A stretch of 64,000 bases of DNA, from NCBI GenBank assembly GCA_963731635.1, contig CAVSWB010000002.1:418465-482464 (forward strand), read 5' to 3'. This document shows positions 13,909 to 32,210 of the stretch, one piece after another. The notes under the pieces are model-generated. The model did not search any database. It saw only the letters and a list, made by a program, of their open reading frames with translations, and was not told the origin of the DNA. The stretch comes from an uncultured Chloroflexia bacterium (GTDB lineage: Bacteria > Chloroflexota > Limnocylindria > Limnocylindrales > CSP1-4). Every line of letters starts with the position of its first letter. The stretch's first letter is position 1. Made by a program: the position numbers and the translations under genes.

Positions 13909-14594
13909 GCCGCGCCTCCTTGCCCTGCTCTGATCCGCCGGACGATCCCGACCGCTGCGGCCGCACGGGCCGCTATCTCGTCGAACCGCCCCGCCGCGAC
14001 ATCAGCGCGGGGCGCAACCCAGCTTCCACCGCAGGCGAGGACGGATTCGATCGCCAGATAGCCGGGCAGACTCGCGGCCGTGATGCCGCCGGTCGGGTTC
14101 CAGGCCATCGTGGAGTACGGAGCGGCGAGCGCCCTGAGGTAGGGCAGGCCGCCGATCGGTTCTATGGGAAAGAGCTTCACCGCACGGATCCCGAGCGAGA
14201 TGGCGGCCTCGACCTCGCTCGGGGTGCATACGCCGGGCATCATGGGAACTCCGAGCCGGCCCGCATATTCGACCACGGCACGGTTGAGGCCCGGTGCCAC
14301 GAGCAGTCTGGCGCCGGCGTCGAACGCGACGTCGGCCTGCCGGGTCGAAGTCACCGTGCCGGCGATCAAGAACACGCCGGGCGCGTCGCGTGCGACCCGG
14401 CGCAAGGCTTCAGCGGCAGCCTCGGTCCGGAACGTGACCTCGACGATCGGCAGGCCGCCGGCTTCGAGTGCCTGGGCCAGGGCAACCGCACGCCCGGCGT
14501 CCTCGACCTCGACCACCGGCACCACGCCGGCGGCGCGGAGTCGATCGGCAAAGGTCACCGCTGCACCACCGGAGCCGGGCACGATGGCGGCCAT
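13896..14594 (-). CDS. eda: KDPG/KHG aldolase (2-dehydro-3-deoxy-6-phosphogluconate aldolase family)
   Basis: VVPVVEVEDAGRAVALAQALEAGGLPIVEVTFRT...GAGTV...GVCTPSEVEAAISLGIRAVKLFP is an Eda-type TIM barrel with the Schiff-base lysine region. Start moved to the internal ATG at 14594, dropping a 28-aa Arg-rich extension. Confidence 0.75.
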   Translation of the reverse strand: MAAIVPGSGGAAVTFADRLRAAGVVPVVEVEDAGRAVALAQALEAGGLPIVEVTFRTEAAAEALRRVARDAPGVFLIAGTVTSTRQADVAFDAGARLLVAPGLNRAVVEYAGRLGVPMMPGVCTPSEVEAAISLGIRAVKLFPIEPIGGLPYLRALAAPYSTMAWNPTGGITAASLPGYLAIESVLACGGSWVAPRADVAAGRFDEIAARAAAAVGIVRRIRAGQGGAAWPS

Positions 14595-14649
14595 TGCCGA
14601 TTCCTCCAGTCTCGATGCGGAGCCGTCTCCTTTACGGAGCAGCCTCGGG

Positions 14650-15669: not shown

Positions 15670-15753
15670 GAAACGATCCTCCTGATCTGATCTGGCTAGA
15701 GTCCGGTGCCGATCCGGCAAGTTCTGTGTTCGATTACCGGAGAGCCGCCATTG

Positions 15754-16833
15754 TCAACGCTGGATTCGGGCGGAGCCGCCCCGAGCGAAAGCCTGAACCT
15801 GTTCGAGCGTGACCATGGTCGTGTCGCCCGGCGTGGTTGTGAGCAGGGCACCGTGCGCCCAGCCAAGTCTGACGGCATCCTCGGCCGTGGCCCCGCTGAG
15901 CAGACCGTATATGAAACCCGAGGCGAAACCGTCTCCGCCGCCGACACGATCCAGAATATCCAGCTCGCAGGTTGGCGCCCGCACGGACCGACCGTCGATC
16001 CAGGCTACGGCGCTCCAGGTGTGGTGGTGGGTTGAATGGACTTCCCGGAGCGTCGTCGCCACGGCCTTCACCGAAGGGAACTTAGCTCTCACATCGTCGA
16101 TCATGCCGAGGAAGACATCGGCGTCGAGCGAGGAGGTCGACTTCACTTCGGGGCCGCGGATGCCGAGGCTCTTCTGGAGGTCCTCCTCGTTTCCAAGCAG
16201 GACGTCGACGTTCGATACGATCTGGCCGATGATCGATTGCGCCCTGTCCGCGCCGCCCCAGATGCCCCAGAGCTTCTCCCGATAGTTGAGATCGAAGCTC
16301 GTGATGGCCCCGGCCTTCTTGGCGGCTTTCATCGCTTCGATGATGAGAGGGCCTGTGGTTTCCGAGAGCGACGCAAAGATCCCGCCCGAGTGGAACCAGC
16401 GAAGTCCATCGGAGAACAGGGCGTCCCAGTCGAAATCTCCGGGCGCGAGTCGCGCGGCGGCCTCGTTTGAGCGGTTGTAGAAGACCACCGGGGCTCTGAC
16501 GCCGTAACCACGGTCGCTGAAGACGGTCGCCATGTTCGGTCCGGTTACGCCGTTGTGGGCGAAGCGTTTGTAGATGCCTCGAACGCCGACGGCTCGGACG
16601 CGTTCGGCGATGAGGTCCCCGATCGGATAGTCGACCATGGCCGACGCGATCGCCGTGTTCATACGGAAGCAGTCAGCCAGGTTGGCGGCCACGTTGAACT
16701 CGCCGCCGCTGACGTAAATGTTGCACTCGGTCGCCTTGCGGAATGGAACGATCCCGGGGTCGAGCCGGTGAACGAGCCCGCCCAGGGATACAAGGTCCAG
16801 AGCGCCTTCCCGGGGGATCATCAGTTGCGCCAT
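15754..16833 (-). CDS. PfkB-family sugar-acid kinase (KdgK/IolC-like), paralog 2
   Basis: Ribokinase-like fold with DRVGGGDGFASGFIYGLLSG and AHGALLTTTPGD. Roughly 45% identical by eye to the kinase at 12808..13908. Confidence 0.75.
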   Translation of the reverse strand: MAQLMIPREGALDLVSLGGLVHRLDPGIVPFRKATECNIYVSGGEFNVAANLADCFRMNTAIASAMVDYPIGDLIAERVRAVGVRGIYKRFAHNGVTGPNMATVFSDRGYGVRAPVVFYNRSNEAAARLAPGDFDWDALFSDGLRWFHSGGIFASLSETTGPLIIEAMKAAKKAGAITSFDLNYREKLWGIWGGADRAQSIIGQIVSNVDVLLGNEEDLQKSLGIRGPEVKSTSSLDADVFLGMIDDVRAKFPSVKAVATTLREVHSTHHHTWSAVAWIDGRSVRAPTCELDILDRVGGGDGFASGFIYGLLSGATAEDAVRLGWAHGALLTTTPGDTTMVTLEQVQAFARGGSARIQR

Positions 16834-16887: not shown

Positions 16888-18171
16888 CTAGCCGACGGCC
16901 GGGACGGACGCGTCGTCCGGGTCCGCCCACTCTTCGTTGGGAACGCGCGCATACCAGCCGGGCCGGCCCGGATCGCGATCGTACGGATAGCCGCCCAGCT
17001 GCTGGAAGAGGGCCGCATAGCGGGCCACTTTCTCATGGTCGAGACGGACGCCAAGCCCAGGTCCGTCGGGAACCGCGATCGAGCCATCGTGATAGGGGAG
17101 CGGGCCGCCCTCGATGATGTCGTCCGCGAGCTGATGGTAGTGGGCGTCCGCGGCGAATTGCATCGAGGGCAAGGCCGCACCGAAGTGGAGCATGGTCGCG
17201 AGCTGTATACCGAGCTCGCCTGAAGAGTGCACGCCGATTCCCAGCTGGAATGTCTCGCACACCGCGGCTGCCTTGAGAACGGGGCGGATGCCGCCCCAGA
17301 AGGTTGTGTCGAGGAGAACCACGTCGACCGCGGGGTCACGGACGTTTGCGGCGAGCTGCTCGAGGTTGGTGACAACGGTATTCGTCGCGATCGGCAGGCC
17401 GACGGCCTGGCGGACCTGGCGCAGGCCGTTCATGCCCCAGGTCGGGTCTTCGTAATAGTCGTTGCGGAGTCCCTTGATGGCATGGCCGATGCGAATTGCG
17501 TCGCGGACGCTGTAAGACGCATTCGGGTCGATTCGCAGGGAGTCGTTCGGAAACGCTTCGGCCAGAGCCAGCAGGCAGCGCAGTTCGTAGTCCGGCGGGA
17601 AAACGCCCGCCTTCAGCTTGTGGGTCGTGAAGCCGCAGCTCGCCTTGAGGGCACGAGCGTGCTCGACCAGCTGATCGACCGTCCGGACCTCCCCGGCGCC
17701 GCTCGCCGAGTTGGGATATCTGAAGAACAGATACGCGGCGAAGGGAACGGCGCTGCGCATCTTGCCGCCCAGCAGGTCGTAGACCGGAACCTCCAGCATC
17801 TTGCCCACGGCGTCGAGGCAGGCGAACTCGAGTGCCGCGTGGATCTGCGTGCGGTTGTCGTATAACGCCGCGGTCGGATTGAGGATCTTGAACCAGAGCG
17901 CGGTCGCGTCGAAGACATCGTGGCCGAGCAGCTTCGGCCTCAGCGATTCAACCGTCAGCTGGGCGCTCTGGCCTCCACCGCCCATCTCGCCGAGTCCGAT
18001 GACGCCGCTCTCCGTTTCTATCTCGATGATGGTCCTGACGAAGCGGCCCCAGTGGGCTCCGGCGGCATGGCGAAGCGGAGCCTCGAGGGGGACGCTGACC
18101 GTGGTCGCTCGCACGTCGGCGATCCTCGATCCACGCGGCGGCCTTCCGTTCCTGGCTCCAGATGCATTCAT
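16888..18171 (-). CDS. gudD: Enolase-superfamily dehydratase, glucarate dehydratase (GudD) subgroup
   Basis: Segments [10 protein letters not shown]...[11 protein letters not shown]...AIKGL...YEDP...[10 protein letters not shown]...DTTFWGG...[28 protein letters not shown]...[12 protein letters not shown]...[12 protein letters not shown] align block-by-block with E. coli GudD from memory (FKLKGGVL...ITLDPNGAWSL...IKIGKYLKG...AEDP...GLPTATNMIA...DPHFWT...[27 protein letters not shown]...PGLGVEIDMDQV). Size 427 aa. Confidence 0.65.
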
Positions 18172-19526: not shown

Positions 19527-19540
19527 GTAACAACTTGACA
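19495..19540. promoter_or_regulatory. Putative operator palindromes in the larC/lacI divergent intergenic region
   Basis: CAACTtgacAGTTG (5-4-5) immediately followed by GTTGCtGCAAC (5-1-5) within aatcatgtaacaacttgacagttgctgcaaccg. Position fits a LacI-family operator and includes a TTGACA -35-like box. Confidence 0.25.
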
Positions 19541-19570
19541 GTTGCTGCAACCGCTTTCATTCTATGGCCG

Positions 19571-20644
19571 ATGCACCAGCGAAACGGCCCTTCCGCAGCC
19601 TCGATCCGGGATGTCGCCCTCAGTGCGAACGTCTCGGCTGCGACCGTTTCGAGAGCCTTTGCCGCGCCCGACCTCGTCCGCCAGGAAACCCTGGCGCGCG
19701 TCCTTGCCGTCGCCGAGGAGTTGCACTACCGGCCGAGCCGGGCGGCGCGAAGCCTCACGACGGGCAAGACCGGCAACATCGGCGTGATCGTGCCGGATCT
19801 GGGGAACCCGTTCTTCCCGGCGATTCTGAAGGGCAGCCAGGCCCGAGCCCGGGAGGCCGACTACGCCGTCTTCCTGGCCGACTCCGATGAAAGCCCCCGG
19901 CTCGAGATCGAGCTGGTGCGTGCGATGTTGAGGCAGGTCGACGGCATCGTGATCTGCTCGTCCCGGCTGGCCGAGGCGCAGCTTCAGCAGCTCCGGAGGG
20001 ACACGACCCTCGTTCTGCTCAACCGCCGGGTGCGCGGCGCGTCTTCCGTCCTGCTCGACAGCGCCGGGGGCATGCGTCAGGCGGTGGAGCACCTCGTCGC
20101 GTTGGGCCACCGGAAGATTGCCTTCGTGAGCGGTCCCGCCGGGTCGTGGTCCAATCGCGAGCGGCGCCGGGGCCTACGGGCGGGCTCGCGGGGAAGGATG
20201 CTCGAGGTCGTCGACTTCGGTCCGTTCGCGCCCGGTTTCGAGGCCGGGCAGCACGCGGCCGACCTGGCAGTAGCGGCCGACGTGACGGCCGTGATCGCCT
20301 ACAACGACCTGATGGCCCTGGGCATTCTCAGTCGACTCGCCGACCGGGGCATCCCCGTGCCGGAGTACATAAGCGTGGTCGGCTTCGACAACATCTCGAT
20401 GGCCGGAATGTCCACTCCCGCGCTTACGACCGTGGCGCTGCCGCTCGAGCAGGCCGGCCGTGTCGCTATCGAGCTGCTGCTTGAGCAGCTTGCCCATCCA
20501 GGGTCGGGCACGCACGAACAGAGCTTGCCGGCCCAGTTGATCGTTCGACCTTCCACAGGACCCCCACGAAGCGGGTCGCGGTCGGACGTGCGGGTTATGC
20601 GTGGAGGGCCCGCCCAGGACACACCGGTCACCGCGGAGAGGTAG
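19571..20644 (+). CDS. LacI-family transcriptional regulator
   Basis: N-terminal HTH ASIRDVALSANVSAATVSRAF followed by a periplasmic-binding-protein-like sugar-binding domain (GNIGVIVPDLGNPFF...AYNDLMALG...VVGFDN). Confidence 0.85.
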   Translation: MHQRNGPSAASIRDVALSANVSAATVSRAFAAPDLVRQETLARVLAVAEELHYRPSRAARSLTTGKTGNIGVIVPDLGNPFFPAILKGSQARAREADYAVFLADSDESPRLEIELVRAMLRQVDGIVICSSRLAEAQLQQLRRDTTLVLLNRRVRGASSVLLDSAGGMRQAVEHLVALGHRKIAFVSGPAGSWSNRERRRGLRAGSRGRMLEVVDFGPFAPGFEAGQHAADLAVAADVTAVIAYNDLMALGILSRLADRGIPVPEYISVVGFDNISMAGMSTPALTTVALPLEQAGRVAIELLLEQLAHPGSGTHEQSLPAQLIVRPSTGPPRSGSRSDVRVMRGGPAQDTPVTAER

Positions 20645-20675: not shown

Positions 20676-21940
20676 ATGAGACTCAGTTCTTGGGACAAGC
20701 GGCTGGGGATCGTCCTGGCCGTGGGAATGGTCGCGTCGGCTTGCGGTACCTCAAGCCCGACGACCACACCGACACCGACAATCGGCCCGTCGGCTACGAC
20801 CGGCGCGAGCAACTCCGCTGCCGCGAGCGGTTCGGCGGCCGCGGCCTCCATGAAGGTTCCGTCCGCGCCCGTCACCCTCAACATCCTCGACGTCGCCGGC
20901 AACCTCCAGCTCACCAAGGGGATGATCGAGAACTTCAAGGCGGCTCATCCCGAGATCGTCAGCAACGTCACCTACTCGACCGCAACCGCGCCGGAGCTTG
21001 CGGGCAAGCTGCAGGCCCAGCAGCAGGGCGGCAACGTTCAGATCAATCTCGTCCTGACCGGCACCGACGGCCTGTCGGCGGGCATCAAGAACAATCTTCT
21101 GACCAAGGTCATTCCTGACCATCAGGACATGTTCCCCGGTCTGATGGACAACTACCTCGCACCGGCGGCCGACATGCAAGGCCTGGCACAGGGATACGGC
21201 ATTGAAGTCGTTTACTACCCGTCCGGCCCGCTAATCGAGTACAACCCGGCCAAGGTCACCACCCCTCCGACCACGCCCGCAGAGCTGCTCGCCTGGGCGA
21301 AGGCTCATCCCGGCAGGTTCGAGTACGCCCGTCCGGCCAACTCCGGCCCGGGCCGCACGTTCCTGATGGCGCTTGCCGTATCTGCTCGGCGACAAGGACT
21401 CCGACCGACCCGGTCAATGGCTGGACCAACACCTGGGCATACCTCAAGGACCTGGGCCAGTACATCAACGTCTATCAGACCGGCACCACCGCGACCATGA
21501 AGGATCTTGCCGCCGGCACCGTCGACATGATCGCCACCACGACCGGTTGGTACATCAACCCGATCATCCTCGGGACCGTCCCGAAGACGACCGCGGTCGG
21601 CAACTTCGCGAACATGACCTGGGTCACTGACGCGCAGTACGTCGTTATCCCGAACGGTGTCTCGGCCGACGTTCTCACCGCGGACCTGGATCTCATCGCC
21701 TGGATGCTCAAGCCCGATCAGCAGGCCATCGCCTACGACAAGGGCTACTTCTATCCGGGCCCGGCAGTCAAGGGCGTCACCCTCGACATGGCTCCGGCCG
21801 ACAGCCAGGCCGCGCTCAAGGGCGTGGTTCCGGCCCAGTTCGACCAGTGGATTGCGCAGTTCCCCAAGGTCACGTCGCTGCCCGCCGACCAGCAGGTCAC
21901 CGCGTTCGACCTGTGGGACCAGAATGTTGGCAAGAAGTAG
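20676..21940 (+). pseudogene. ABC transporter substrate-binding lipoprotein (PotD/AfuA-like, family 1 SBP) with two closely spaced frameshifts (~21375 and ~21420)
   Basis: Lipobox LAVGMVASACG. The protein reads ...GPGRTFLMAL in frame 0, PYLLGDKDSDRP in frame 1, then VNGWTNTWAYLKDLGQYINVYQTGTTATMKDLAAGTVDMIATTTGWY... in frame 2 through to 21940. Both shifts sit at short homopolymer runs. Confidence 0.65.
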
Positions 21941-22017
21941 GCGGATCGTCGCCACCGATCAGGAATTGACCTGTTAGCAAAGGAAACCAGCCGTGCGCGA
22001 CCAACAGCTTCTCTGAA

Positions 22018-23086
22018 TTGCGTCTCGACCGCATCGGCCGCAACTTCGGCGAGCAGGCCGCACTGAGCGATCTCAGTCTGACGATCCGAGGAGGCGAGTT
22101 CATCGCCCTCCTCGGGCCGTCGGGTTGCGGCAAATCGACGGCTCTCAACTGTCTGGCCGGGCTGCTGCCGCTCTCCAGCGGCAGCATCTGGCTCGACGAT
22201 CGAGCGCATCGACGGGCTGGCCCCCGAGCAGCGTGGCTTCGGGATGGTCTTCCAGAACTACGCGCTCTTCCCGCACATGACCGTTCGCGACAACGTCGCT
22301 TTCGGGCTCAAGATGCGCAAGACGCCTCGCCCGGAATTGCGCCGCCGGGTGGACGAGGCAATGGCTCTGGTCCGGCTCGAGGATCAGGCGACCAAGCTGC
22401 CGGCCCAGCTGTCGGGCGGGCAGCAGCAGCGCGTCGCCATCGCCCGCGCGGTTGTCTATGAGCCGCCGCTCGTGCTCATGGACGAGCCGCTATCCAACCT
22501 TGACGCCCAGCTGCGGCTGGCCATGCGGACCGAGATCCGGCGTCTCCATCAAACGCTCGGCCTGACGACGATCTACGTCACGCACGATCAGGAAGAAGCC
22601 CTTTCGATGGCCGACCGCCTGGTCCTGCTCCGCGAGGGCATTGTCCAGCAGGTCGGCACGCCCGACGACGTCTACGCCCATCCAGCCAATCGTTATGTGG
22701 CGGGCTTCATGGGCTATCGGAACATGCTCGAATTCGACCTCGAGAGCGCCTCCGGAGGCTCGGCGGTGCTCGCTTCCAAGGACGTGCGCCTGACCGGCAT
22801 GACGTTCGGGCCGATCGAGTCGAAGCGAGCCGTGGCCGCGATCCGGCCCGAGGACGTGGTCGTGGACGGGCCCGAGCCGAACCGGTTCCAGGTGACCGCC
22901 GAGGTTGTCGAGTATCACGGTCGCGAACTGCTGATCCTGGCTCGGCTGCCCGCCGGCGAACCACTCTACCTGCGGACCGAGAAGCGGTTCGCCGCCGGCG
23001 ACGCCATCGCAGTTTCGGTGCCGCCGGAACGCGTTCTCGTCTACCCGGCCGATGCACCCGCGGCGCCGACGGAGGCAGTCGTATGA
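22018..23086 (+). pseudogene. ABC transporter ATP-binding protein (PotA/FbpC-like, with C-terminal TOBE/MOP-like domain), frameshift near 22210
   Basis: Walker A GPSGCGKST, then a frame switch. The expected IWLDDRRIDGLAPEQRGFGMVFQNYALFPH is restored by deleting one base in gatcgaGcgcatc. Downstream: LSGGQQQRVAIARA, VLMDEPLSNLDAQLR, YVTHDQEEA. Confidence 0.7.
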
Positions 23087-24000
23087 CGGCCGCGTCTGGC
23101 CTGGCGCCGCGCCCGGCGGCCGCGGGACGCTCGCTCAAGCACCGCCTTGCCGATCGCGGCATCGACCGCGTGCTGCTCTTGCTCCTGCCCGGCGTCCTGT
23201 TTCTGGTGCTGCTCTTCGTGTACCCGTTCCTTTACGGGCTGCAGCTGTCATTCGCCCCCCAAGGCGGTGGCGGACCGCTCGCGAACTATCAGACTTTCTT
23301 CTCGGACCCGTACCTGCGCGACACCATCTGGACAACCCTCAGTCTCGGCGTACCGGCAGCGCTTCTCAACGTGCTGGTCTCCGTGCCGATCGCGTACCGG
23401 ATGCGCGGCGCGTTTCGCGGCAAGCGGACCCTCACCACGCTGCTGGTGGTCCCGATCGCCCTCGGCACGGTCCTCACGGCCGAAGGCCTCATCGAGTTCC
23501 TCGGCCCCTCGGGCTGGCTCAACAAATTCCTGAAGGACTTCGGTCTCGTCGACCAGCCGGTCCTGCTGGTCCACAACTACTGGGGCGTCTTCTTCTCGCT
23601 GGTGATCACGGGCTTCCCGTTCGCGTTCCTGCTCGTGCTCTCGTACCTCTCGGGTATCGATCCGAACCTCGAGCGGGCGGCCTCGGTGATGGGAGCCGGT
23701 TGGGTGCAGCGGTTCCGCCGTATCACCTTCCCGCTGCTCGTCCCGGGTCTGGCCATCACCTTCTGCCTGTCGTTCGTGCTCGCCTTCTCGGTCTTCCCCT
23801 CGGCCAACCTTGTCGGTGATCCGTCCGGCACTACGCGCGTGATATCGATCGCGGCGTACCACGCTGCCTTCGAGCAGTTCGATTATTCGATGGGTTCGAC
23901 GATCTCCATGATCATGGGCGCAGTCATGCTCGGGATTATTGCCATCGTCCTGGGCTGGCGAAGCACGCTCTTCCGAGGAGCCACCGGAGGTAAGGGCTGA
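23083..24000 (+). CDS. ABC transporter permease (PotB-like)
   Basis: Six-TM permease with the ABC inner-membrane EAA-like region (ERAASVMGAGWVQRFRRITFPLLVPG). Coupled to the flanking genes. Confidence 0.8.
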   Translation: MTAASGLAPRPAAAGRSLKHRLADRGIDRVLLLLLPGVLFLVLLFVYPFLYGLQLSFAPQGGGGPLANYQTFFSDPYLRDTIWTTLSLGVPAALLNVLVSVPIAYRMRGAFRGKRTLTTLLVVPIALGTVLTAEGLIEFLGPSGWLNKFLKDFGLVDQPVLLVHNYWGVFFSLVITGFPFAFLLVLSYLSGIDPNLERAASVMGAGWVQRFRRITFPLLVPGLAITFCLSFVLAFSVFPSANLVGDPSGTTRVISIAAYHAAFEQFDYSMGSTISMIMGAVMLGIIAIVLGWRSTLFRGATGGKG

Positions 24001-24875
24001 TGGCCGCCGCGATGAATGCTCCCACCACTGCCGCGCCGCGCGCTTCGAGGCGGAGCTTCCGGCCGTCGAACATCGGGGGCTGGGTGGTCTGGGGCCTGGT
24101 CGCTTTCTTCTTCATCAACCTCGCGGGTCTGATCTCCACAGTCGTCCTCTCGTCGTTCGCGACCACGTGGTTCGGGTCCTGGATCCCCGACGGCTTCACG
24201 ACCCACTGGTACGGCGACGCCTGGGCCGAGTTCGATCTGTCCGACGTGCTCACGGTCACGGCCCAGGTGGCAATCACAGTCGTGGTCGTGTCCGCCCTCA
24301 TCGGCGTTCCGGCAGCCTATGCGCTGGCTCGGCGCAACTTCCCCGGCAAAGCCCTGATTACGGTCCTCTTCCTGCTGCCGATTCTCATTCCGCCGATCAC
24401 CTACGGCATCCCCCTCGCGACCGTGCTCTACAAGGTGCACCTGGCCGGCAGCCTGTCCGGCGTGATCGTGGCGAACCTGGTACCGACGGTGCCGTTCGTT
24501 GTCCTGGTCATGATTCCCTTCATCGAACAGATAGACCCGAAGATCGAGGCGGCGGCGCGGATGTGCGGCGCGGGCACTTTCACGGTCTTCACGCGCATCC
24601 TCGGGCCGCTCCTGGTGCCCGGCATTCTCGCCGCGGCGATCCTGGTACTCGTCCGGACGGTCGGCATGTTCGAGTTGACCTTCCTGACGTCGGGCCCGAC
24701 AAGCTCGACGCTCGTCGTGGTCCTGTATTCGGCGGTGTTCGGAGCCGGCATCAGGGCTCCACAAGAAGTCGACGCGATGGCGGTCGTCTATACAGCCTCG
24801 ATGATGGTGCTGCTCGTGATCGCCCTGCGCTTTGTCAATCCGACTCAGCTGGTAACGCGCGTAGGAAACCGCTGA
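24000..24875 (+). CDS. ABC transporter permease (PotC-like)
   Basis: Polytopic permease with EAA-like loop EAAARMCGAGTFTVFTRILGPLLVPG. ATGA overlap with the upstream permease. Confidence 0.8.
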   Translation: MAAAMNAPTTAAPRASRRSFRPSNIGGWVVWGLVAFFFINLAGLISTVVLSSFATTWFGSWIPDGFTTHWYGDAWAEFDLSDVLTVTAQVAITVVVVSALIGVPAAYALARRNFPGKALITVLFLLPILIPPITYGIPLATVLYKVHLAGSLSGVIVANLVPTVPFVVLVMIPFIEQIDPKIEAAARMCGAGTFTVFTRILGPLLVPGILAAAILVLVRTVGMFELTFLTSGPTSSTLVVVLYSAVFGAGIRAPQEVDAMAVVYTASMMVLLVIALRFVNPTQLVTRVGNR

Positions 24876-24962: not shown

Positions 24963-25715
24963 ATGACCCGAACCGTCGTTGCCCCCGAGCGGCCGGGCGA
25001 CCTGATTGGACTCGCTATTGCCGACCTCGAACCCGGTCAGTCGTTCGAGTCGCCGGGCGATCTCGAAACCGTGGTCGTCGTACTCGGCGGCGTTGTGGAC
25101 GTCGAAGCGAACGGCGAATCGCTCGGGTCGGCCGGGGGACGAGCGTCCGTCTTCGAGGGCCCCGGTCACGCCGTCTACGCTCCTCCAGGCACGCGGCTCC
25201 GACTGAAGGCCACGACCTCAGCTCAGCTCGCCATTGCCACGGCACCCGCCGGCGGATCGTCGCCGGCCGGCGCGCGCGTAATCGGGCCCGGGGACCAGCG
25301 CCTTGCGGACGTTGGCAAAGGGAATTGGGCTCGCACCGTTCGAACCATCCTCGGCCCCGAGCACGCCGCCGGCAGGCTCCTGCTGGGTGAGACGATCAAC
25401 CCGCCGGGCAACTGGTCTTCGTACCCGCCACACCGGCACGATCGCGAGACGCCCGGCGAGGAGGTCAGGCTCGAGGAGGTCTACCTGTTCAAGGTCGATC
25501 CGCCAGAGGGTTTCGGGGTTCAGATCCGTTATGACGAGGCCGCCACCGAAGCCTTCACCGTTCGGGACGGCGACGCGGCAGTCATCCGCACCGGCTACCA
25601 CCCGGTCGTGGCGGCGCCGGGTTACTCCCTCTACTACCTGTGGGTCATGGCCGGCGAAGGCCGAGAAATGATCCCTCACTTCGACCCGGCCCACGCCTGG
25701 GTTCAGAAGTCATGA
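24963..25715 (+). CDS. KduI/IolB-family cupin sugar-acid isomerase (5-deoxy-glucuronate isomerase IolB-like)
   Basis: GNWSSYPPHRHDRETPGEEVRLEEVYLFKVDPPEGFGVQIRYDE...VIRTGYHPVVAAPGYSLYYLWVMAGEGREMIPHFDPAHAWV matches B. subtilis IolB nearly motif-for-motif from memory (GNWSSYPPHKHDQDN...EETYYHELDPGQGFVFQRVY...VPAGYHPVGVPDGYTSYYLNVMAG...HNDPAHEWI). Confidence 0.7.
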   Translation: MTRTVVAPERPGDLIGLAIADLEPGQSFESPGDLETVVVVLGGVVDVEANGESLGSAGGRASVFEGPGHAVYAPPGTRLRLKATTSAQLAIATAPAGGSSPAGARVIGPGDQRLADVGKGNWARTVRTILGPEHAAGRLLLGETINPPGNWSSYPPHRHDRETPGEEVRLEEVYLFKVDPPEGFGVQIRYDEAATEAFTVRDGDAAVIRTGYHPVVAAPGYSLYYLWVMAGEGREMIPHFDPAHAWVQKS

Positions 25716-27247
25716 GCACGCAGCAAGGCTCGACGGAGTCGAGCGAGGCCATCTCGATCCTCCGGCAGGCGGGTGCCCTGGAGGACTCGCTCACGAGCAT
25801 CGAAGGCGGCGGGGCGGGGATCCGGGCCGAAAACCGGGGCTGGGAGATCCTCTTCTGGGCTCCATCGGGACAGCCGGTGCCGGGTGGCATGACGGGCCAA
25901 TCGTCAGAGCTCGGCGGCGGGACGCTGCTCACCGGGGATCCGGACCATGCGAACGCGACCGCTTTGCGCGGTCTCATGCCGTGGCTCCAGCCGCGCACCG
26001 TCGGCGCGGTCACCTCGGTTGGGGTCGGCGACCGGCTGGGCATCGCGACCGTGGGCCATATCGCCGCCTTCCGCGACAATCCGGGAATCGTCCCGGTCCT
26101 GGCTCAGCAGTCCGCTCGCGAGCTTGCGCGGACCGGCCGATCCTTTCGCGATGTAGTCGACGCGGCCACCTTCGGGGCGCTCGCCGCCGGCTGGCGCGAC
26201 GGCTACGGCGCCGATGCCGATCACCTCAAGACCGTCGACGACATCGATGCGGGCCTCGACGCGGGCTGCACCCTGTTCACGGCCGATCCGGGCGACTTCG
26301 TCGTCGACCTGCCGCCAGACGCGCCGCAGGCGGCGATCGAAGCCGCATTCGCTGCGGTGCCTTGGGCCGCTCTCGAAGATGACCCGACCACCTTCGGGCG
26401 GCGCTATCCGGCCCGGCTGGATCTGGATTCGGGCTCGCTCGAGCTTCCCCCGGCAGCCCTCCGGGCCGCCGCCGCGCGATTTGGGCCGGCCGTCGTCCAG
26501 GTGGTGTCAATGTACCGGCACCTGGCCTCAAAGCGCGCCGCCGGCTCGTTCGAGTTCGAGGTGGCAGCCGATGAGATAGAGAACCCCACGACTCTCATCG
26601 GCCATGTGTACGTCGCGACCGAGTTGCGCCGGCTCGGCGTTGACTGGGTGAGCCTCGCCCCCAAGTTCGTGGGCGAATTCGAGAAGGGCATCGACTATCT
26701 CGGAGACCAGGCCGAGTTCGCGGCCGACGTGGAACTCCACGCCGCCATTGCCCGGCGCCTCGGCGACTACAAACTGAGCATTCACTCGGGTTCGGACAAG
26801 TACTCCATCTACGACGCGATCGCCCGTGGGACTCACGATCGGGTCCATCTCAAGACGTCCGGCACGAGCTATCTCGTGGCTCTCGAGACGATCGCGGCCG
26901 CCGAGCCCGAACTCATGCGCCGGATCTGGCGGGTGGCTCTCGGGGCTTATACGGCAGCGAGGGCGACCTATCACGTCTCGGCCAACCCGGCCGGCGCGAC
27001 TTCGCCGGAAGGAGCCTCCGCCGCGGCGCTGGCTGGTCTTCTCAGCGATCCCAACACGCGCGAAATCCTCCATGTCACCTACGGCGCGGTGCTTCACGAC
27101 GATGCCGTGCTCGGCAACGACGTTCGCGCGGCCATCTGGTCGAGGCGCGAGCATTACTGGGCCAACCTCGAAGCCCACATCGGTCGCCACTTGCGGCCGT
27201 TCTCACGGGCCGCCGCACGGGCAGCCGCGAAAGGAGACTCTCGATGA
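25712..27247 (+). CDS. UxaE-like tagaturonate/fructuronate epimerase family protein (assignment tentative)
   Basis: Blocks GADADHLKTVDDIDAGLDAGCTLFTADPGD, LAPKFVGEFEKGIDYLGD, HAAIARRLGDYKLSIHSGSDKYS, HLKTSGTSYLVALE and ILHVTYGAVL resemble recalled Thermotoga UxaE motifs (ADADHVKT, LAPKFPGQFQK, SVHSGSDKFS, HLKTAGTSFLEA, VLHITYGSVL). ATG at 25712 overlaps the upstream stop (ATGA). Confidence 0.5.
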   Translation: MSTQQGSTESSEAISILRQAGALEDSLTSIEGGGAGIRAENRGWEILFWAPSGQPVPGGMTGQSSELGGGTLLTGDPDHANATALRGLMPWLQPRTVGAVTSVGVGDRLGIATVGHIAAFRDNPGIVPVLAQQSARELARTGRSFRDVVDAATFGALAAGWRDGYGADADHLKTVDDIDAGLDAGCTLFTADPGDFVVDLPPDAPQAAIEAAFAAVPWAALEDDPTTFGRRYPARLDLDSGSLELPPAALRAAAARFGPAVVQVVSMYRHLASKRAAGSFEFEVAADEIENPTTLIGHVYVATELRRLGVDWVSLAPKFVGEFEKGIDYLGDQAEFAADVELHAAIARRLGDYKLSIHSGSDKYSIYDAIARGTHDRVHLKTSGTSYLVALETIAAAEPELMRRIWRVALGAYTAARATYHVSANPAGATSPEGASAAALAGLLSDPNTREILHVTYGAVLHDDAVLGNDVRAAIWSRREHYWANLEAHIGRHLRPFSRAAARAAAKGDSR

Positions 27248-28047
27248 GCAACCTCCAAGCTGCCGGCTCGGCCTCGGGTATCGGCCTCTTCGACCTCACC
27301 GGCCGGGTGGCCGCGGTTGTCGGCGGCGCCGGCGTCCTCGGCGGCACGGTTTGCCACGGCTTCGGCGATGCCGGGGCCGCGATCGCGGTGCTCGATCGCT
27401 CGCAGGAGCGCGCCGACGAACTGGTGGCGGCGCTCAAGGCCAAGGGCGTCAGGGCGGCCGCCTTCGTGTTGGATGCCTCGGATCAGGCGTCTGTCGAGGC
27501 GGCGCACAAGGCGGTCGAGGCGGCGCTCGGCCCGGTCGACATCCTCGTCAATGCCGTCGGCATCAACAGCGGGACGCCCTTCTTCGAACTCGGGCTGGAG
27601 GAGTGGAACCGCGTTCTCCAGGTGAACCTGACCTCGTGCCTGCTGGCTTGCCAGATCTTCGGCAAGGCCATGGTCGATCGCGGGCAGGGCGGGTCGATCA
27701 TCAACTTCTCGTCGGCGTCCTCGGAAGTGCCGCTCTCACGCGTGCTGACGTATTCGGTGTCCAAGGCCGGGATCAACATCCTGACGCGCTACCTGGCGCG
27801 CGAGCTGGCGCCACACAAGATCCGGGTCAACGCCATCGTGCCGGGGTTCTTCCCGGCCGAGCAAAATCGCAAGCTGCTCGATGACGCCCGGATCGAGTCG
27901 ATCATCCGCCACACCCCGGCCGGCCGGCTCGGCGAGGCCGAGGAGCTGGTCGGAACCATGATCTGGCTCGCCTCGGACCGCGCCTCCGGCTTCGTGACGG
28001 GGTCCCTCGTCCGCGTGGACGGCGGCTTCAGCGCGATGACAATCTGA
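27244..28047 (+). CDS. Short-chain dehydrogenase/reductase (UxuB/KduD-like sugar-acid oxidoreductase)
   Basis: Gly-rich NAD(P) motif VVGGAGVLGGTV, NAVG, catalytic S...YSVSKAG triad, PG motif. Coupled to the UxaE-like gene. Confidence 0.8.
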   Translation: MSNLQAAGSASGIGLFDLTGRVAAVVGGAGVLGGTVCHGFGDAGAAIAVLDRSQERADELVAALKAKGVRAAAFVLDASDQASVEAAHKAVEAALGPVDILVNAVGINSGTPFFELGLEEWNRVLQVNLTSCLLACQIFGKAMVDRGQGGSIINFSSASSEVPLSRVLTYSVSKAGINILTRYLARELAPHKIRVNAIVPGFFPAEQNRKLLDDARIESIIRHTPAGRLGEAEELVGTMIWLASDRASGFVTGSLVRVDGGFSAMTI

Positions 28048-28077: not shown

Positions 28078-28854
28078 TCAGCCCACCCGGCCCCGAGCGA
28101 TGAGCGCTCCGACCGTGCCCGCCCCAACGCCGTCGTCCACTCCCACGATGGCCACTCCGGGCGCGCACGACGAGATCATCGCCAGCAGCGCGCTCAATCC
28201 GCCGAAGGTCGAACCGTAGCCCACGCTCGTCGGACAGGCGATTACCGGTACACGTGCCAGCCCGCCGACGACGCTGGCCAGCGCCGCGTCCATGCCCGCC
28301 ACGACGACGATCGCGTCGGCTCGCTCGATTTGGGGCTCTTCGGCGAGAAGTCGGTGAAGCCCGGCGACGCCGACATCTGCGATCACGTGGACCTCGGCTC
28401 CCAGGAGCCGGGCGACTTGAGCGGCCTCGTCGGCTACCGGCAGGTCCGAGGTTCCGGCAGTGAGTACCAGGAGCCGCCCCCGAACTTCCGGGACCGCCCG
28501 GGGAATAGCCAGCAGACCCGGACGCTCGTGCCATTCGGTCTGCAGGCCTCGCGCCTGCGCCAGAACCTGGATAGCGCCGGCTTGCTCGGCCGTGACGCGT
28601 GTCACGACCACGCTGGATTCGTCCTGATCCAGCTGCGATTCGACGATTGCCAAGAGCTGATCGAGCGTCTTGCCGGGGGCATAGACGAACTCCACGATGC
28701 CCTGACGAATGCCGCGGTGGTGATCGACGCGGGCGAAGCCGAGGTCGCCGAACGGCAGCCGGCGCAGCGATTCGAGCGCCTCTGAGACCGGCACCGTGCC
28801 CTTGGAAACCCCCAGCAAGAGATCCTCCAGGCCGGAGGCGTAGACGTCAGGCAC
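28078..28854 (-). CDS. larB: LarB, pyridinium-3,5-biscarboxylic acid mononucleotide synthase (PurE-like NPN biosynthesis carboxylase)
   Basis: C-terminal PurE-like fold (LVLTAGTSDLPVADEAAQVARLLGAEVHVIADVGVAGLHRL...VVVAGMDAALASVVGGLARVPVIACPTSVGYG). The N-terminal LarB-specific domain is present. Start trimmed to a GTG near 28854 to avoid a 100-bp overlap with larE. Confidence 0.65.
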   Translation of the reverse strand: MPDVYASGLEDLLLGVSKGTVPVSEALESLRRLPFGDLGFARVDHHRGIRQGIVEFVYAPGKTLDQLLAIVESQLDQDESSVVVTRVTAEQAGAIQVLAQARGLQTEWHERPGLLAIPRAVPEVRGRLLVLTAGTSDLPVADEAAQVARLLGAEVHVIADVGVAGLHRLLAEEPQIERADAIVVVAGMDAALASVVGGLARVPVIACPTSVGYGSTFGGLSALLAMISSCAPGVAIVGVDDGVGAGTVGALIARGRVG

Positions 28855-29782
28855 TCGGCCCGTCTCCGGCGCCGGTTCCTGCGTAGGCCGCCGGCGACCA
28901 GCTCTCGAACCCGAGCTGGACAAGACGGGCCTGGACGTCGTCAGCACTGATCCGCAGCCTGGTCAGTTCGTCCGCCTCAACCTCCACCCGGGCGTGGCTC
29001 CCGAAGTCTCGGACGCGGACCTGGGCAAAGCCGAGCGCTCGAAGGGCGAGTTCGGCCGCCTCGACCCGCCGCAGCCGATCGGCGGTTATCGGCTCGCCGA
29101 ATGGGATCCGGCTTGCCAGGCAGGCCGACGCCGGCCGATCCCAGCCGGAAATGCCCAGCGATCGAGCCAGGCTGCGCAGCTGGTCCTTGGTGATTCCGGC
29201 TTCGGCGAGGGGAGAGCGGACGTGGAGTTCGGCGCCGGCGGCCATGCCCGGGCGGTCGGTCCGGACCGTGTCCGAGGCGTTCGTGCCGTCGACGACCCAG
29301 GCGTATCCCTCGGCCCTCGCGGTCGCGGAGGCGGCGCCGTAGACCTCCAGCTTGCAGAAATAGCAGCGCGACCTGGGGTTGCGCGCATAGCGCGGATCGT
29401 CGAGCTCCTTGGTCGGGACCATGCGCCAGCGGGCCCCGTGGCGGCCGGCTTCGCCGGCGGCGACCGCCGCATCGGCGCGATCCCACGCCGGCACTGCGGC
29501 CGAGTCTCCGGTGAGGGCAAGGCAGCGCTCGCCCAGGATGGGCGACGCGACCGCCAGCAGAAAGCTCGAGTCGATTCCGCCCGAGAGCGCCAGGACGCAT
29601 GAGCCCAGCCCCTCGACGATCGAGAGCAAGCGCTCGAACCGCTCGATCGCCAGGGCGTCGGTCCCTGCCGGTCCGCTCTTCGCCAGCTCCAGCAGCAGAC
29701 GCGACGCCGTCGCGGTCGCGGTCGCGGTCGCGGTCGAGGTCGCTCCTGAGGTTCGGTTGGTCGGAGGGCCGTTGCCTGACAT
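28847..29782 (-). CDS. larE: LarE, ATP-dependent sacrificial sulfur transferase of NPN cofactor biosynthesis (PP-loop ATPase)
   Basis: PP-loop SGGIDSS. Conserved Cys-containing SACLASRIPFGEP matches the LarE sulfur-donor cysteine region. Overall LarE/QueC-like alpha/beta ATPase. The N-terminus carries a (Thr-Ala)n hexanucleotide repeat. Confidence 0.75.
   Translation of the reverse strand: MSGNGPPTNRTSGATSTATATATATASRLLLELAKSGPAGTDALAIERFERLLSIVEGLGSCVLALSGGIDSSFLLAVASPILGERCLALTGDSAAVPAWDRADAAVAAGEAGRHGARWRMVPTKELDDPRYARNPRSRCYFCKLEVYGAASATARAEGYAWVVDGTNASDTVRTDRPGMAAGAELHVRSPLAEAGITKDQLRSLARSLGISGWDRPASACLASRIPFGEPITADRLRRVEAAELALRALGFAQVRVRDFGSHARVEVEADELTRLRISADDVQARLVQLGFESWSPAAYAGTGAGDGPSA
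29711..29740. repeat. Hexanucleotide microsatellite (CGCGGT)x4 plus one imperfect unit inside the larE 5' region, encoding (Thr-Ala)n
   Basis: Seen directly: cgcggtcgcggtcgcggtcgcggtcgaggt. On the minus strand it encodes ...STATATATATASR in LarE. Confidence 0.6.
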
Positions 29783-29887
29783 CGGCCTGACGATACATCC
29801 TCTTCACCGTCCGCGCGCCGGGCGCTCTCGCCGGGCCGGGGGCCGCTCGGTGTAGAGTTGAGCCCTCGTACGAGGCGAGCCACGATC

Positions 29888-31258
29888 ATGAACCAGGACA
29901 CCGCCCACCCCACGGTCAAGCCCGAAACGCTCGCCGATCCGCCGGCTTCGGCCGCTGCGCCGACCCCGTCGCCGGCGTCCCACCTCGAGCCGTTCGCCGA
30001 ATTCATGGGCGGAACCCTGCCGCGCTGGGCGCTCGTCCGCCACCACATGCATGTGGACGAAGTGGCCGACGTGACCGCGGCGGTCGGCGAAGCGCTGGAG
30101 CCCGTTCGAGTGCTCATCCGGCCCGGTTCGCGCGTGTGTCTGGCGGTCGGCAGCCGCGGTATCGACAGGATCGATGAGGTCGTTCGCGCGGCGGTCGCCT
30201 GGGTCCGGTCAGCCGGCGCCGAGGTCTTCGTCGTGCCGTCCATGGGCAGCCACGGAGGCGCTACGGCGGAGGGCCAGCTCGAGGTGCTCGCGTCCTACGG
30301 CATGACTCCCGAATCGATCGGCTGCGAGATTCGATCGAGCATGGAGACGGTCGAGCTGGGCGAGGTTCGTCCCGGAATCCCGGTCTTCGTGGATCGCAAC
30401 GCTTTCGAAGGCGCCGACATCATCGTGCCGATCAATCGCGTCAAGCCGCACACGGACTTCAGCGGCGAGATCGAGAGCGGTCTCATGAAGATGATCGCGA
30501 TCGGGCTGGGTAAGCAAAAGGGCGCCGACACGTTCCATCGCCAGGGTTTCGCGACGTTCCATGAGCTGATTCCGATGGTGGCCGAGTTCACGCTCTCAAA
30601 GGCCAATATCCCGTTCGGCCTGGCCCTCGTCGAGAACGGCTACGCGAGGTTGTCGCGGATCGAGGCGGTGCCGCGGGACAGGATCTGGGAGCGCGAGCGT
30701 GAGCTGCTGGCGGAGGCTCGAGAGCAGATGGCGAGGCTTCCTCTCGCAAAAATCGACGTGCTGGTGCTCGACTACATCGGCAAGGACATCAGCGGCCTGG
30801 GCATGGATTCCAACGTGGTGGGCCGTTACTACACCGGGCCGACGGGCGACGGCCCGAGCATCCAGCGGATCGTCGTCGGCGATCTTACGGAGGAAACCGA
30901 GGGCAACGCCGTCGGCATCGGCATGGCCGACGTAGTGCTGAGGCGCGCGGTCGAGAAGATGGACTCGTACAAGACCTACATGAACTGCATCACGGCCAAG
31001 ACGCCGGAAGGCGCACGCGTGGCCCTGACCATGGATACGGACCGGCACGCCCTCCTCGTGGCAATCGCCTCCTGCCTCAAGGTAGAGCCGGCCACCGCCA
31101 GGATCGTCCGGATTCGCGACACCAAACACCTCGGGATGCTCTATGTGAGCGAGCCGGCACTCGCAGACGTGCTGGCGACGGGTCGTTGCGACATCGTGCG
31201 GCCGCTCGAGGCGATCGAGTTCGATCAGGGCGGGATGTACGCGTCGGCAGTGGGGTAG
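29888..31258 (+). CDS. LarA-family nickel-pincer-dependent 2-hydroxyacid racemase/epimerase homolog (DUF2088/LarA)
   Basis: Motif PINRVKPHTDFSGEIESGLMKMIAIGLG fits the LarA KPH...SGG-K region that tethers the NPN cofactor. Size of about 456 aa and domain order are consistent with LarA-family proteins. Gene is divergent from larE and larB. Start at the ATG giving MNQDTAHP. Confidence 0.65.
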   Translation: MNQDTAHPTVKPETLADPPASAAAPTPSPASHLEPFAEFMGGTLPRWALVRHHMHVDEVADVTAAVGEALEPVRVLIRPGSRVCLAVGSRGIDRIDEVVRAAVAWVRSAGAEVFVVPSMGSHGGATAEGQLEVLASYGMTPESIGCEIRSSMETVELGEVRPGIPVFVDRNAFEGADIIVPINRVKPHTDFSGEIESGLMKMIAIGLGKQKGADTFHRQGFATFHELIPMVAEFTLSKANIPFGLALVENGYARLSRIEAVPRDRIWERERELLAEAREQMARLPLAKIDVLVLDYIGKDISGLGMDSNVVGRYYTGPTGDGPSIQRIVVGDLTEETEGNAVGIGMADVVLRRAVEKMDSYKTYMNCITAKTPEGARVALTMDTDRHALLVAIASCLKVEPATARIVRIRDTKHLGMLYVSEPALADVLATGRCDIVRPLEAIEFDQGGMYASAVG

Positions 31259-31294: not shown

Positions 31295-31984
31295 TCAGCG
31301 GAAGTCCTGCGCGTTGAACCACTTCCCGCTCGTGCCGTCCTCGAGCAGCACCGGAACGAGGGCGCCCGGCAGCACCGATTCCACAGCCCCGGGTGCCCTC
31401 GGGCCGCCGAGGTCGGTGCGCAGCCAGCCTGGATCGAGCAGGTTCAGGCACACGCCGGTTCCCGCCAGATGGGGCGCCATGTCGTACACGTACTTGTCGA
31501 GAGCCGCCTTGGACGCGGCGTAGGCCATGAGCTGCGGCTGGTCCTTGATGCCCGACGTGAGGTTCACCACCCGACCGAACTTCCGCTCGATCATGCCGGG
31601 AAGCAGCATGTTGGAAAGAGTGATGGGCGCGATGGCGTTCACCTGGAAGCTGAGCTCGTACTCGGCCGCGTCCGTGGTGAACATGTCCTCGTGCCAGGGC
31701 ATCTGGATGCCGGCGTTGTTGAAGAGGATGTCGATGCCGCCGGAGATTTCGAGGGCGTCCCGGCCCAGCGCGAGGACCTGCACCTGGTCCGAGAGTTCGG
31801 CCTCGAGCGCGTGCACCGTCAGGCCACGAGCCTTGAACCGGGCCACAAGCTCGGCCGTATGTTCGCGTTTGCGGCTGTGCAGGATCAGACGGCAGCCCAT
31901 GTCCGCCAGCGCCGCGGCAACCTGCCGGCCGACGCCTCGACTAGACCCGGTGAGCAGCACCCACTTGCCCGAAATATCCAACAT
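31295..31984 (-). CDS. Short-chain dehydrogenase/reductase
   Basis: LLTGSSRGVGRQVA Rossmann motif, NNAG, and catalytic S...YAASKAALD. Convergent with the LarA-family gene. Confidence 0.75.
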   Translation of the reverse strand: MLDISGKWVLLTGSSRGVGRQVAAALADMGCRLILHSRKREHTAELVARFKARGLTVHALEAELSDQVQVLALGRDALEISGGIDILFNNAGIQMPWHEDMFTTDAAEYELSFQVNAIAPITLSNMLLPGMIERKFGRVVNLTSGIKDQPQLMAYAASKAALDKYVYDMAPHLAGTGVCLNLLDPGWLRTDLGGPRAPGAVESVLPGALVPVLLEDGTSGKWFNAQDFR

Positions 31985-32111
31985 GCGATCTCCCATCGTT
32001 CGGCCACCGCCCGCGTCGACATGATCCCATGGCCGGGCGCGGCTCGAGGCACTGCGGGGTGGCAGGTTCTCGCCAGGGTCGCCCCAGGTAAACTGAGCGC
32101 GCCGGCGCCGC

Positions 32112-32197
32112 GGAGAGGTGGCAGAGCGGTCTATTGCGGCGGTCTTGAAAACCGCTGGACGAGAGTCCCGTGAGTTCGAATCTCACCCTCTCCGCCA
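32112..32197 (+). tRNA. tRNA-Ser (anticodon TGA)
   Basis: Acceptor GGAGAGG/CCTCTCC plus discriminator G and CCA. Anticodon stem-loop GCGGT-CTTGAAA-ACCGC with TGA centred. Long variable arm TGGACGAGAGTCCCG, T-arm GAGTTCGAATCTCAC. Class II tRNA length. Confidence 0.85.
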
Positions 32198-32210
32198 AGA
32201 TTGCCCTCGT

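Follow-up and report, generated by a model that had tools for sequence, protein, structure and literature searches.

A LarA homologue of group 22 in a hexuronate locus of an uncultured Chloroflexota bacterium: a possible nickel-pincer-dependent D-mannonate/D-gluconate 2-epimerase

We analysed a 64-kb stretch of DNA (the window; ~67% G+C) from a metagenome-assembled genome (MAG) of a Limnocylindria-type Chloroflexota bacterium. The interval under study, positions 28078-31258, contains the cofactor genes larB and larE and a divergent gene (29888..31258, plus strand) for a protein of 456 amino acids (aa). This protein is a new, intact member of LarA-homologue (LarAH) group 22, a clade of the LarA superfamily of nickel-pincer nucleotide (NPN) enzymes. 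We tentatively propose that group 22 is an NPN-dependent C2 epimerase converting D-mannonate to D-gluconate, which would feed the carbon of uronic acids to 6-phosphogluconate dehydrogenase (Gnd); we regard this reading as quite possible, if short of probable. The proposal draws on the family and fold of the protein, the conservation of its residues and, above all, a gene order that recurs in different phyla.

The group 22 protein and its cofactor genes

The assignment of the 29888..31258 product to the LarA family, made in the original prediction from the bare sequence, was borne out. The protein scores 502.5 bits against the NCBIfam model NF052515 ("nickel pincer cofactor-dependent isomerase, group 22"; cut-off 400), and an orthologue from Paenibacillus scores 543.6 bits. 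The open reading frame (ORF) opens at 29858 or 29888, and full-length orthologues support the ATG at 29888 as the start codon. General models are far less sensitive: the match to Pfam Lar_N (PF09861) is marginal (23.8 bits vs. a gathering score of 23.3), and that to DUF362 is sub-threshold (22.5 vs. 24). A single-sequence phmmer search retrieved only PDB entry 4NAR, over a 64-residue stretch (E 0.22) in which the PH...K...TFH / SGGLK...TFH region was aligned, and a profile search of the PDB sequences with a group 22 alignment found nothing at E<=10. As sequence methods barely reach the solved LarA structures, membership was settled by a fold search. When an AlphaFold2 model of the window protein (pLDDT 83.5, pTM 0.79) was compared with the PDB using Foldseek, the best 19 matches were all LarA-family structures (probability 1.00, E 1.7e-11 to 2.7e-8), and the next match followed at E 0.022.

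Comparison of a group 22 profile with a LarA group 1 profile (hhalign) gave a weak local alignment (E 0.005, probability 6.75%), which ends at H188 and pairs H122 with H108 and H188 with H174 of LarA. Since this alignment is weak and local, the equivalence of the two histidines is supported by it and not proven. When 21 members were aligned, taken from Chloroflexota, Bacillota, Poribacteria, Bathyarchaeia and Actinomycetota, R90, H122, K186, H188, T189, E196, S197, K201, H217, K299, D307, N309, R313 and N340 proved to be invariant (21/21). These include the equivalents of LarA R75 (R90), H108 (H122), H174 (H188), K184, the NPN tether (K201), and H200, the Ni ligand (H217). The correspondence is consistent with the table of Desguin et al. 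(PMC7583248), in which LarA D72/R75/H108/H174/F175/F176/K184/H200/Y294/Q295/K298 are represented in group 22 by V/A, R, H, H, T, D/A, K, H, D, T/P and I/T. A glycine-rich loop not seen in LarA, GK(D/N)ISGxGxDxN, is invariant in group 22 at the region of Y294-K298. Thus, of the NPN- and catalysis-related positions that had been singled out for verification, the equivalents of H108, K184 and H200 are present, while that of K298 is not conserved; K298 is also absent from some other LarAH groups, according to the same authors.

As judged from the alignments and the structural model, the 456-aa protein is a member of the LarA superfamily that retains the equivalents of the tether lysine, the Ni-binding histidine, both catalytic histidines and Arg75. 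It shares with LarA of L. plantarum (5HUQ) the two-domain fold (TM ~0.5, E 2e-8), the equivalents of R75, H108, H174, K184 and H200, and the company of LarB, LarC and LarE. It differs from LarA in its low sequence identity (13%), in the lack of conservation of D72, F175, F176, Y294, Q295 and K298 throughout group 22, and in its sugar-acid gene context.

The enzyme had been presented as a candidate undescribed one; in fact, the clade is already catalogued. In the supplement of Desguin et al. 2020 (PMC7583248) it forms LarA-homologue group 22, with 20 members labelled "Unknown function", and a curated hidden Markov model (HMM) for it, NF052515, is available at NCBI; the NPN dependence of the clade was inferred there by others. 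The catalogued members come from Rubrobacter, B. coagulans, Chloroflexus, Geobacillus, Paenibacillus, Desulfosporosinus and Syntrophobacter, among others, and include the loci Rxyl_2987, Bcoa_1745, Cagg_0419, GK1970 and Pjdr2_1789. The window protein carries the motifs of that group (GSRGI, MGSHGG, KPHT.F and IESGLMK) and its residue pattern.

The clade is large and widely distributed. A HMMER scan of 1.84 billion cluster representatives detected 1122 clusters (50% identity) at E<=1e-30 and 3795 at E<=1e-3. Genome scans found group 22 in many MAGs as well as in cultured Paenibacillus, Cohnella and Tumebacillus, and its overall spread covers Chloroflexota, Bacillota (with the cultivable Paenibacillus and Geobacillus), Poribacteria, Bathyarchaeia and Actinomycetota. 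For roughly half of the homologues (P0001-P0433) a PF09861 match is not on record, and several bear the annotation DUF362. A look-up of the exact sequence of the window protein (P0001) retrieved no recorded contig. Given the marginal performance of PF09861 on group 22, surveys built on PF09861 or IPR048068 probably under-count the clade.

The genes for cofactor synthesis were identified in the same locus. LarB, a nicotinic acid adenine dinucleotide (NaAD) carboxylase/hydrolase (28078..28854, minus strand), scores 232 bits against NF033503 (cut-off 175) and matches the PurE-like Pfam family AIRC. Its ORF spans 28078-28947 on the minus strand, with a GTG at 28854 as the likely start codon; from there larB overlaps the end of larE, and judged from this overlap its translation is coupled to that of larE. 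The ATP-dependent sulfur insertase LarE (28847..29782, minus strand) scores 244 bits against TIGR00268 (cut-off 150). LarC, the CTP-dependent nickel insertase (18168..~19430, minus strand), scores 178 bits against TIGR00299 (LarC1; cut-off 90) and 118 bits against LarC2 (cut-off 50). Its gene was located by a motif scan, the protein carrying an N-terminal motif of ten residues. It is the first gene of a minus-strand catabolic operon ~9 kb upstream of the interval 28078-31258, and its stop codon overlaps the start of the following dehydratase gene by 4 nt. The LarB, LarE and LarC models are thus all matched above their NCBIfam cut-offs within one locus, so that the complete set reported in the original prediction does exist, with LarC encoded outside the interval to which it had been ascribed. 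We predict from these gene identities that the 456-aa protein is loaded with NPN made by the LarB, LarE and LarC of its own locus.

An ORF at 18375-19499, on the strand opposite larC, has no family match. Another candidate for larC, at 32118-33524, was discarded; it encodes a tyrosine integrase. An Rfam scan of the locus found no riboswitch.

The window LarE contains the PP-loop motif SGGIDS at residue 67 and the cysteines C140, C143 and C221 of a CXXC-C set. In Thermotoga, such a set characterises the LarE of the catalytic, [4Fe-4S] type (PMC9283937). The motif suggests that the window LarE is probably of this type and binds a [4Fe-4S] cluster, unlike the L. plantarum system, in which LarE is of the sacrificial type. 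The NCBIfam model that it matches nevertheless carries the name 'sacrificial sulfur transferase', despite the CXXC-C set.

Gene neighbourhoods and the proposed epimerization

The original prediction placed the group 22 gene among genes of sugar-acid metabolism, and family searches confirmed each of the neighbours that it listed, i.e. a GudD-like dehydratase, an IolB/KduI isomerase, UxaE, two short-chain dehydrogenases/reductases (SDRs), two PfkB kinases resembling kinases of 2-keto-3-deoxygluconate (KDG), and Eda. A further member of the locus, which had escaped mention, is a gene for a short-type decarboxylating 6-phosphogluconate dehydrogenase (14650..15720, minus strand; PRK09599 438 bits and TIGR00872 405 bits, both above cut-off).

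On the plus strand, the order is LacI, ABC transporter, IolB/KduI, UxaE and SDR1, followed by larB-larE (minus strand), group 22 (plus) and SDR2 (minus). The LacI-family regulator (19535..20644; Pfam LacI and Peripla_BP_3) is divergent from larC. The ATP-binding cassette (ABC) transporter (20676..24875) is of the CUT1 type and consists of a substrate-binding protein (SBP), an ATPase and two permeases (Pfam SBP_bac_8, ABC_tran with TOBE_2, and BPD_transp_1 twice). The IolB/KduI-family cupin isomerase (24963..25715; Pfam KduI 257 bits) also passes the IolB equivalog model (TIGR04378, 211 bits, cut-off 205), although no further inositol-pathway genes lie beside it. The UxaE-like protein (25640..27247; Pfam UxaE 402 bits) is a tagaturonate/fructuronate epimerase. 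SDR1 (27244..28047) is a YjmF/UxuB-like reductase with canonical motifs (Gly-rich, NAVG and S/Y/K), predicted to reduce fructuronate to D-mannonate; its best NCBIfam match is PRK08277, D-mannonate oxidoreductase (262 bits, below the cut-off of 281).

The minus-strand operon runs larC, dehydratase, kinase b, Gnd, Eda and kinase a. The dehydratase (16888..18171) is a 'GudD-like' acid-sugar dehydratase of the enolase superfamily (Pfam MR_MLE_N and MR_MLE_C). It reaches 180 bits on TIGR03247, far under the cut-off of 829, and its closest PDB entries (4it1, 3vc5 and 3vdg) are uncharacterised 'putative glucarate dehydratases' with no assigned substrate. It is translationally coupled to larC and belongs to a glucarate-dehydratase-related subgroup; we predict that it converts a hexonate to KDG. 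Gene order pairs PfkB kinase b (15754..16833) with Gnd and PfkB kinase a (12808..13908) with Eda, a KDPG/KHG aldolase (13896..14678; Pfam Aldolase 189 bits; TIGR01182 208 bits, cut-off 156). Both kinases match Pfam PfkB; kinase a, which is KDG-kinase-like in NCBIfam, is predicted to be a KDG kinase, and kinase b a hexonate (gluconate/mannonate) kinase.

Related loci (L numbers) revealed which of these neighbours are true partners of group 22. In relatives from Limnocylindria-type Chloroflexota, the core consists of SDR1, (larB-larE) and group 22, with IolB/KduI, UxaE, the ABC transporter, LarC and Gnd close by. In loci L009, L010, L012 and L017, group 22 directly follows SDR1 on the same strand; UxaE adjoins SDR1 in L001-L003, L006, L009 and L014; the arrangement LarC<|IolB>SDR1> is kept in L004, L005, L007, L008 and L021; and the order Gnd > PfkB kinase b > group 22 was found in L016 and L018.

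The same association recurs in Paenibacillaceae, whose group 22 proteins show ~46% identity. There the order is LacI | SDR, group 22, FGGY kinase, LarE, LarB, LarC, (NicO), (Gnd) and a ~420-aa protein, with SDR-group 22-FGGY(-Gnd) present in L084, L086, L087 and L089. The partner SDR is 53-63% identical among the window, Paenibacillaceae and other Chloroflexota (55% between Paenibacillus and the window), and in Paenibacillaceae, too, its best match is PRK08277 (269-274 bits). The Gnd of this family scores 729 bits. The FGGY kinase is gluconokinase-like (TIGR01314), with 652.7 bits in L086 (cut-off 648.55) and 520 in L084. The ~420-aa protein, which has no Pfam or NCBIfam match, proved to belong to the amidohydrolase superfamily, as a uronate isomerase of the BH0493 type (PDB 2q08, 532 bits), and is conserved at the end of the operon in four loci (L084:17435-18727, L087:14464-15726, L088:10072-11346 and L089:13805-15070). 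In two Paenibacillaceae loci a GH2 enzyme and a glucuronide-type transporter of the major facilitator superfamily (MFS) adjoin the operon. Overall, lar genes adjoin group 22 in three lineages, including Paenibacillaceae and other Limnocylindria. These associations agree with the group 22 contexts of Desguin et al. (PMC7583248), in which SDR (45%), COG0129 dehydratase (30%), LarE (30%), sugar kinase (25%) and glucuronate isomerase (COG1904; 20%) are accompanied by TRAP transporters and IclR regulators. Compared with other group 22 loci, the window is distinguished by the insertion of larB-larE between the SDR and the enzyme gene, and by a PfkB instead of an FGGY kinase, a short instead of a long Gnd, and an IolB/KduI cupin instead of UxaC/BH0493.

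The two SDRs said to flank the group 22 gene are both present, and only SDR1 is a conserved partner. SDR2 (31295..31996, minus strand; Pfam adh_short 130 bits; motifs TGSSRGVG, NNAG and YAASK), a classical SDR convergent with group 22, has matches of only 26-36% identity in related loci. Some oxidoreductases encoded next to lar genes have been proposed to bind NPN (PMC13524815); SDR1 and SDR2 were rejected as NPN binders, both having canonical SDR dinucleotide and catalytic motifs.

The sole C2 epimer of D-gluconate is D-mannonate. A module composed of a uronate isomerase, a fructuronate-reductase-like SDR, a hexonate kinase and Gnd therefore indicates that group 22 makes the gluconate configuration, from D-mannonate. 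The same module surrounds a proven enzyme. GntE, the D-gluconate 2-epimerase of LarAH groups 19/20, is known as TM0442 of T. maritima (GntE2, group 20, PDB 4NAR) and as GntE1 of C. glutamicum; through GntE2, D-mannonate from the UxaE-type hexuronate route enters the pentose phosphate pathway via gluconate kinase and Gnd. The contexts of group 20 contain an SDR in 100% and an FGGY kinase in 86% of cases (PMC7583248). Group 22 resembles GntE in its LarA fold (4NAR is among the Foldseek matches), in the NPN-related lysine and histidine and both catalytic histidines, in its neighbourhood of SDR and sugar-acid kinase (with or without Gnd) within a hexuronate locus, and, as predicted, in a UxaE-type route leading to mannonate, gluconate, 6-phosphogluconate and Gnd. 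Because the module is the same, the known mannonate/gluconate epimerization is the most economical prediction. In view of the match with the GntE2 surroundings, the new reaction, or new pathway context, announced in the original prediction is not the reading that we favour. Its idea of an NPN-dependent epimerase for a sugar acid rather than lactate was right in kind; the novelty of the reaction found no support.

In the scheme that we propose, uronate would be imported by the ABC system and converted to a keto-uronate by the IolB/KduI-like cupin (by the BH0493-type isomerase in Paenibacillaceae). UxaE would then convert tagaturonate to fructuronate, SDR1 would reduce fructuronate to D-mannonate, and group 22 would epimerize D-mannonate to D-gluconate; 6-phosphogluconate would be made by PfkB kinase b and ribulose-5-P by Gnd. 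The enolase-type dehydratase, KDG kinase a and Eda would constitute a parallel branch. The epimerization itself may proceed by LarA-type proton-coupled hydride transfer, with the C2-H hydride passing to C4 of the pincer and a transient 2-keto acid; H122 and H188 would form the acid/base pair on opposite faces, K201 would tether NPN and H217 would ligate Ni. From the observed gene identities, fold, residue conservation and gene order we infer which substrate group 22 uses, that its step precedes that of the kinase, and what the IolB-like isomerase and kinase b do. Neither UxaC nor a BH0493-type isomerase was found in the window, and the cupin, which stands where other lineages have UxaC/BH0493 and is the sole candidate for this step in the window, may be a non-orthologous uronate aldose-ketose isomerase. 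KduI of E. coli is reported to facilitate hexuronate conversion (PMC3578941).

Several observations weigh against the conversion of D-mannonate to D-gluconate by group 22. The pocket signature of GntE, i.e. E, V, A and H at LarA positions 175, 176, 358 and 359 (PMC11770544), does not occur in group 22, which has T and D/A at positions 175/176 and another C-terminal pattern. With the signature residues replaced by T, D or T, A, the active site is not GntE-like. In addition, group 22 is only ~14% identical to GntE and has a 3-residue insertion between the catalytic histidine and the tether lysine. Residues that bind the substrate carboxylate in LarA (Y294, Q295 and K298) are replaced by D307, S308 and V311 in the window protein, and by D, T/P/S and I/T/V in the group as a whole. 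Kinase b is KDG-kinase-like (158 bits vs. 2afb), and it is because of this resemblance that the substrates of both kinases are given here as predictions; an FGGY gluconokinase was not found in the window. Other contexts fit poorly as well. The genes after group 22 encode, in Poribacteria (L034-L080), a UbiX-like flavoprotein and/or the prenyltransferase UbiA, a xylose-isomerase-like TIM barrel and a sulfatase (LarC lies <=10 kb from group 22 in ~10 of these loci), and, in Thermomicrobiales-like genomes (L081-L083), an SDR, a LysE exporter and one or two P450s; both contexts offer no usable substrate clue and are at odds with the uronate model. In Tumebacillus only an SDR was found near group 22, with neither kinase nor Gnd, and the published contexts with COG0129 dehydratases and TRAP transporters fit several sugar acids (PMC7583248). 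Finally, we found no biochemical characterization of any group 22 member in the searchable literature. Considering these differences, we propose, from sequence comparison, that group 22 may be a second, independently shaped LarA-type mannonate/gluconate epimerase with a different active site.

The adjoining kinase allows another order of steps. If D-mannonate were phosphorylated first, group 22 would epimerize 6-phospho-D-mannonate to 6-phospho-D-gluconate for Gnd, and would be the gene behind an activity of Lactobacillus suebicus. A 6-phosphomannonate 2-epimerase has been demonstrated in extracts of this bacterium, where the mannonate kinase is a gluconokinase homologue (Valk et al. 2020). 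Its place in a galacturonate route of the UxaE type, after fructuronate reductase and before 6-phosphogluconate dehydrogenase, is that of group 22 in our scheme; unlike group 22, it is known from cell extracts alone, with no gene assigned. The partner kinases are non-canonical, being either PfkB or an FGGY kinase below the equivalog cut-off (520 bits, L084), the GK(D/N)ISGxGxDxN loop, which group 22 has in addition to several invariant basic residues, could bind a phosphate, and the characterised GntE enzymes have a high Km for free mannonate (17 and 120 mM). On the other hand, it is free mannonate on which those enzymes act, and the kinase of L086 does pass the gluconokinase equivalog cut-off. 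We consider this order of steps unlikely, though it deserves attention.

It is likewise doubtful, in our opinion, that the substrate is some other sugar acid, e.g. a different hexonate pair (altronate/allonate, galactonate/talonate or gulonate/idonate), a pentonate, a uronate epimerized at C5, or an aldarate, in a family that may be heterogeneous. This would account for the active-site signature unlike that of GntE, the varied contexts (COG0129 dehydratases, TRAP and IclR; P450/LysE; the sulfatases of Poribacteria), the size of the family (1122 clusters, as above) and the co-transcribed enolase-type dehydratase, which resembles glucarate dehydratases of unassigned specificity. The adjacent kinase and Gnd, however, require (6-phospho)gluconate as the product, and the partner SDR is orthologous across phyla and closest to mannonate oxidoreductase.

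Instead of an epimerase, group 22 could be an isomerase or oxidoreductase that shuttles hydride, for instance an NPN-dependent uronate aldose-ketose isomerase replacing UxaC, which we regard as very unlikely. The missing UxaC and BH0493 in the window and the generic family name at NCBI ('isomerase') would agree with such a function; moreover, NphT, of an unrelated fold, shows that NPN can support intermolecular hydride transfer on sugars (PMC13524815), and Desguin et al. (PMC7583248) noted that other hydride-mediated reactions might be catalysed by LarAHs that are divergent. Dedicated uronate isomerases co-occur with group 22, however (the BH0493 type in the four Paenibacillaceae loci and COG1904 in 20% of contexts), both catalytic histidines of the racemase mechanism are invariant, and the IolB/KduI-like gene offers an alternative isomerase candidate. 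A racemase of lactate or another small 2-hydroxyacid, or a DUF362-like protein without NPN, as hinted at by the borderline Lar_N and sub-threshold DUF362 scores and by homologues annotated 'lactate racemase domain-containing' or 'DUF362', is hardly credible in view of the replacement of all lactate-site residues (F175, F176, Y294, Q295 and K298), a gene context of sugar-acid and not lactate catabolism, the invariant tether lysine and Ni-binding histidine, and the lar genes that adjoin group 22 in three lineages.

The right end of the locus and the quality of the sequence

The group 22 gene was described as lying in the middle of sugar-acid genes. It is indeed embedded in a hexuronate/hexonate locus, whose right-hand neighbours are not pathway genes and belong to an integrated element. 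This element of 26,452 bp (window 32112-58654) is inserted in a tRNA-Ser(TGA) gene, which forms the right end of the locus and the attachment site (32112..32197, plus strand; ARAGORN and Rfam), and it is bounded by an exact direct repeat of 59 bp (32144-32202 and 58596-58654). It encodes the tyrosine integrase mentioned above (32118-33524), a RepSA replication initiator of the pSAM2 type (33890-35635, minus strand), an IS3 element with an ALIL frameshift pseudoknot (41841-41957), IstA/IstB of IS21 (43111-45467), a TOTE-type AEP primase/helicase (47174-49564) and a MalT/LuxR regulator (53924-56644), as well as two AbiEii toxins. RepSA is a hallmark of actinomycete integrative elements; here it resides in a Chloroflexota-like contig.

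Two genes of the transport system are split by frame changes, namely those of the SBP (20676-21937; near 21374-21395) and the ABC ATPase (22009-23086; near 22203), whose orthologues are intact in loci L002, L003 and L009. Further split genes are those of a Peripla_BP_6 binding protein (7288-8710) and a P-type ATPase (59161-61819). That the frame changes are scattered over unrelated genes suggests indel errors in a MAG assembled from long reads, and not a decaying pathway. Each of the lar genes occupies one frame throughout, as do SDR1, UxaE, IolB and group 22.

Implications for group 22 and hexuronate catabolism

Group 22 ranks among the larger clades of LarA and has carried the label 'unknown function' since 2020. 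The gene order conserved across phyla narrows it to a specific prediction, i.e. the conversion of mannonate or 6-phosphomannonate to gluconate or 6-phosphogluconate.

If the phosphorylated compound proved to be the substrate, group 22 would be the first enzyme to use NPN on a phosphorylated sugar acid, and more than 1000 clusters (50% identity) would be tied to an orphan activity. They would represent a widespread, redox-neutral and nickel-dependent route from uronic acids to the pentose-phosphate and phosphoketolase pathways.

The conversion of free D-mannonate to D-gluconate, which we prefer, would add no new type of chemistry for the nickel-pincer cofactor. If it is correct, the LarA superfamily would have acquired this reaction on at least two occasions, with different active-site solutions. 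The hexuronate route of the Thermotoga type, via gluconate to the pentose phosphate pathway, would then be far more widespread than thought, and it would be nickel-dependent in many soil and peat bacteria.

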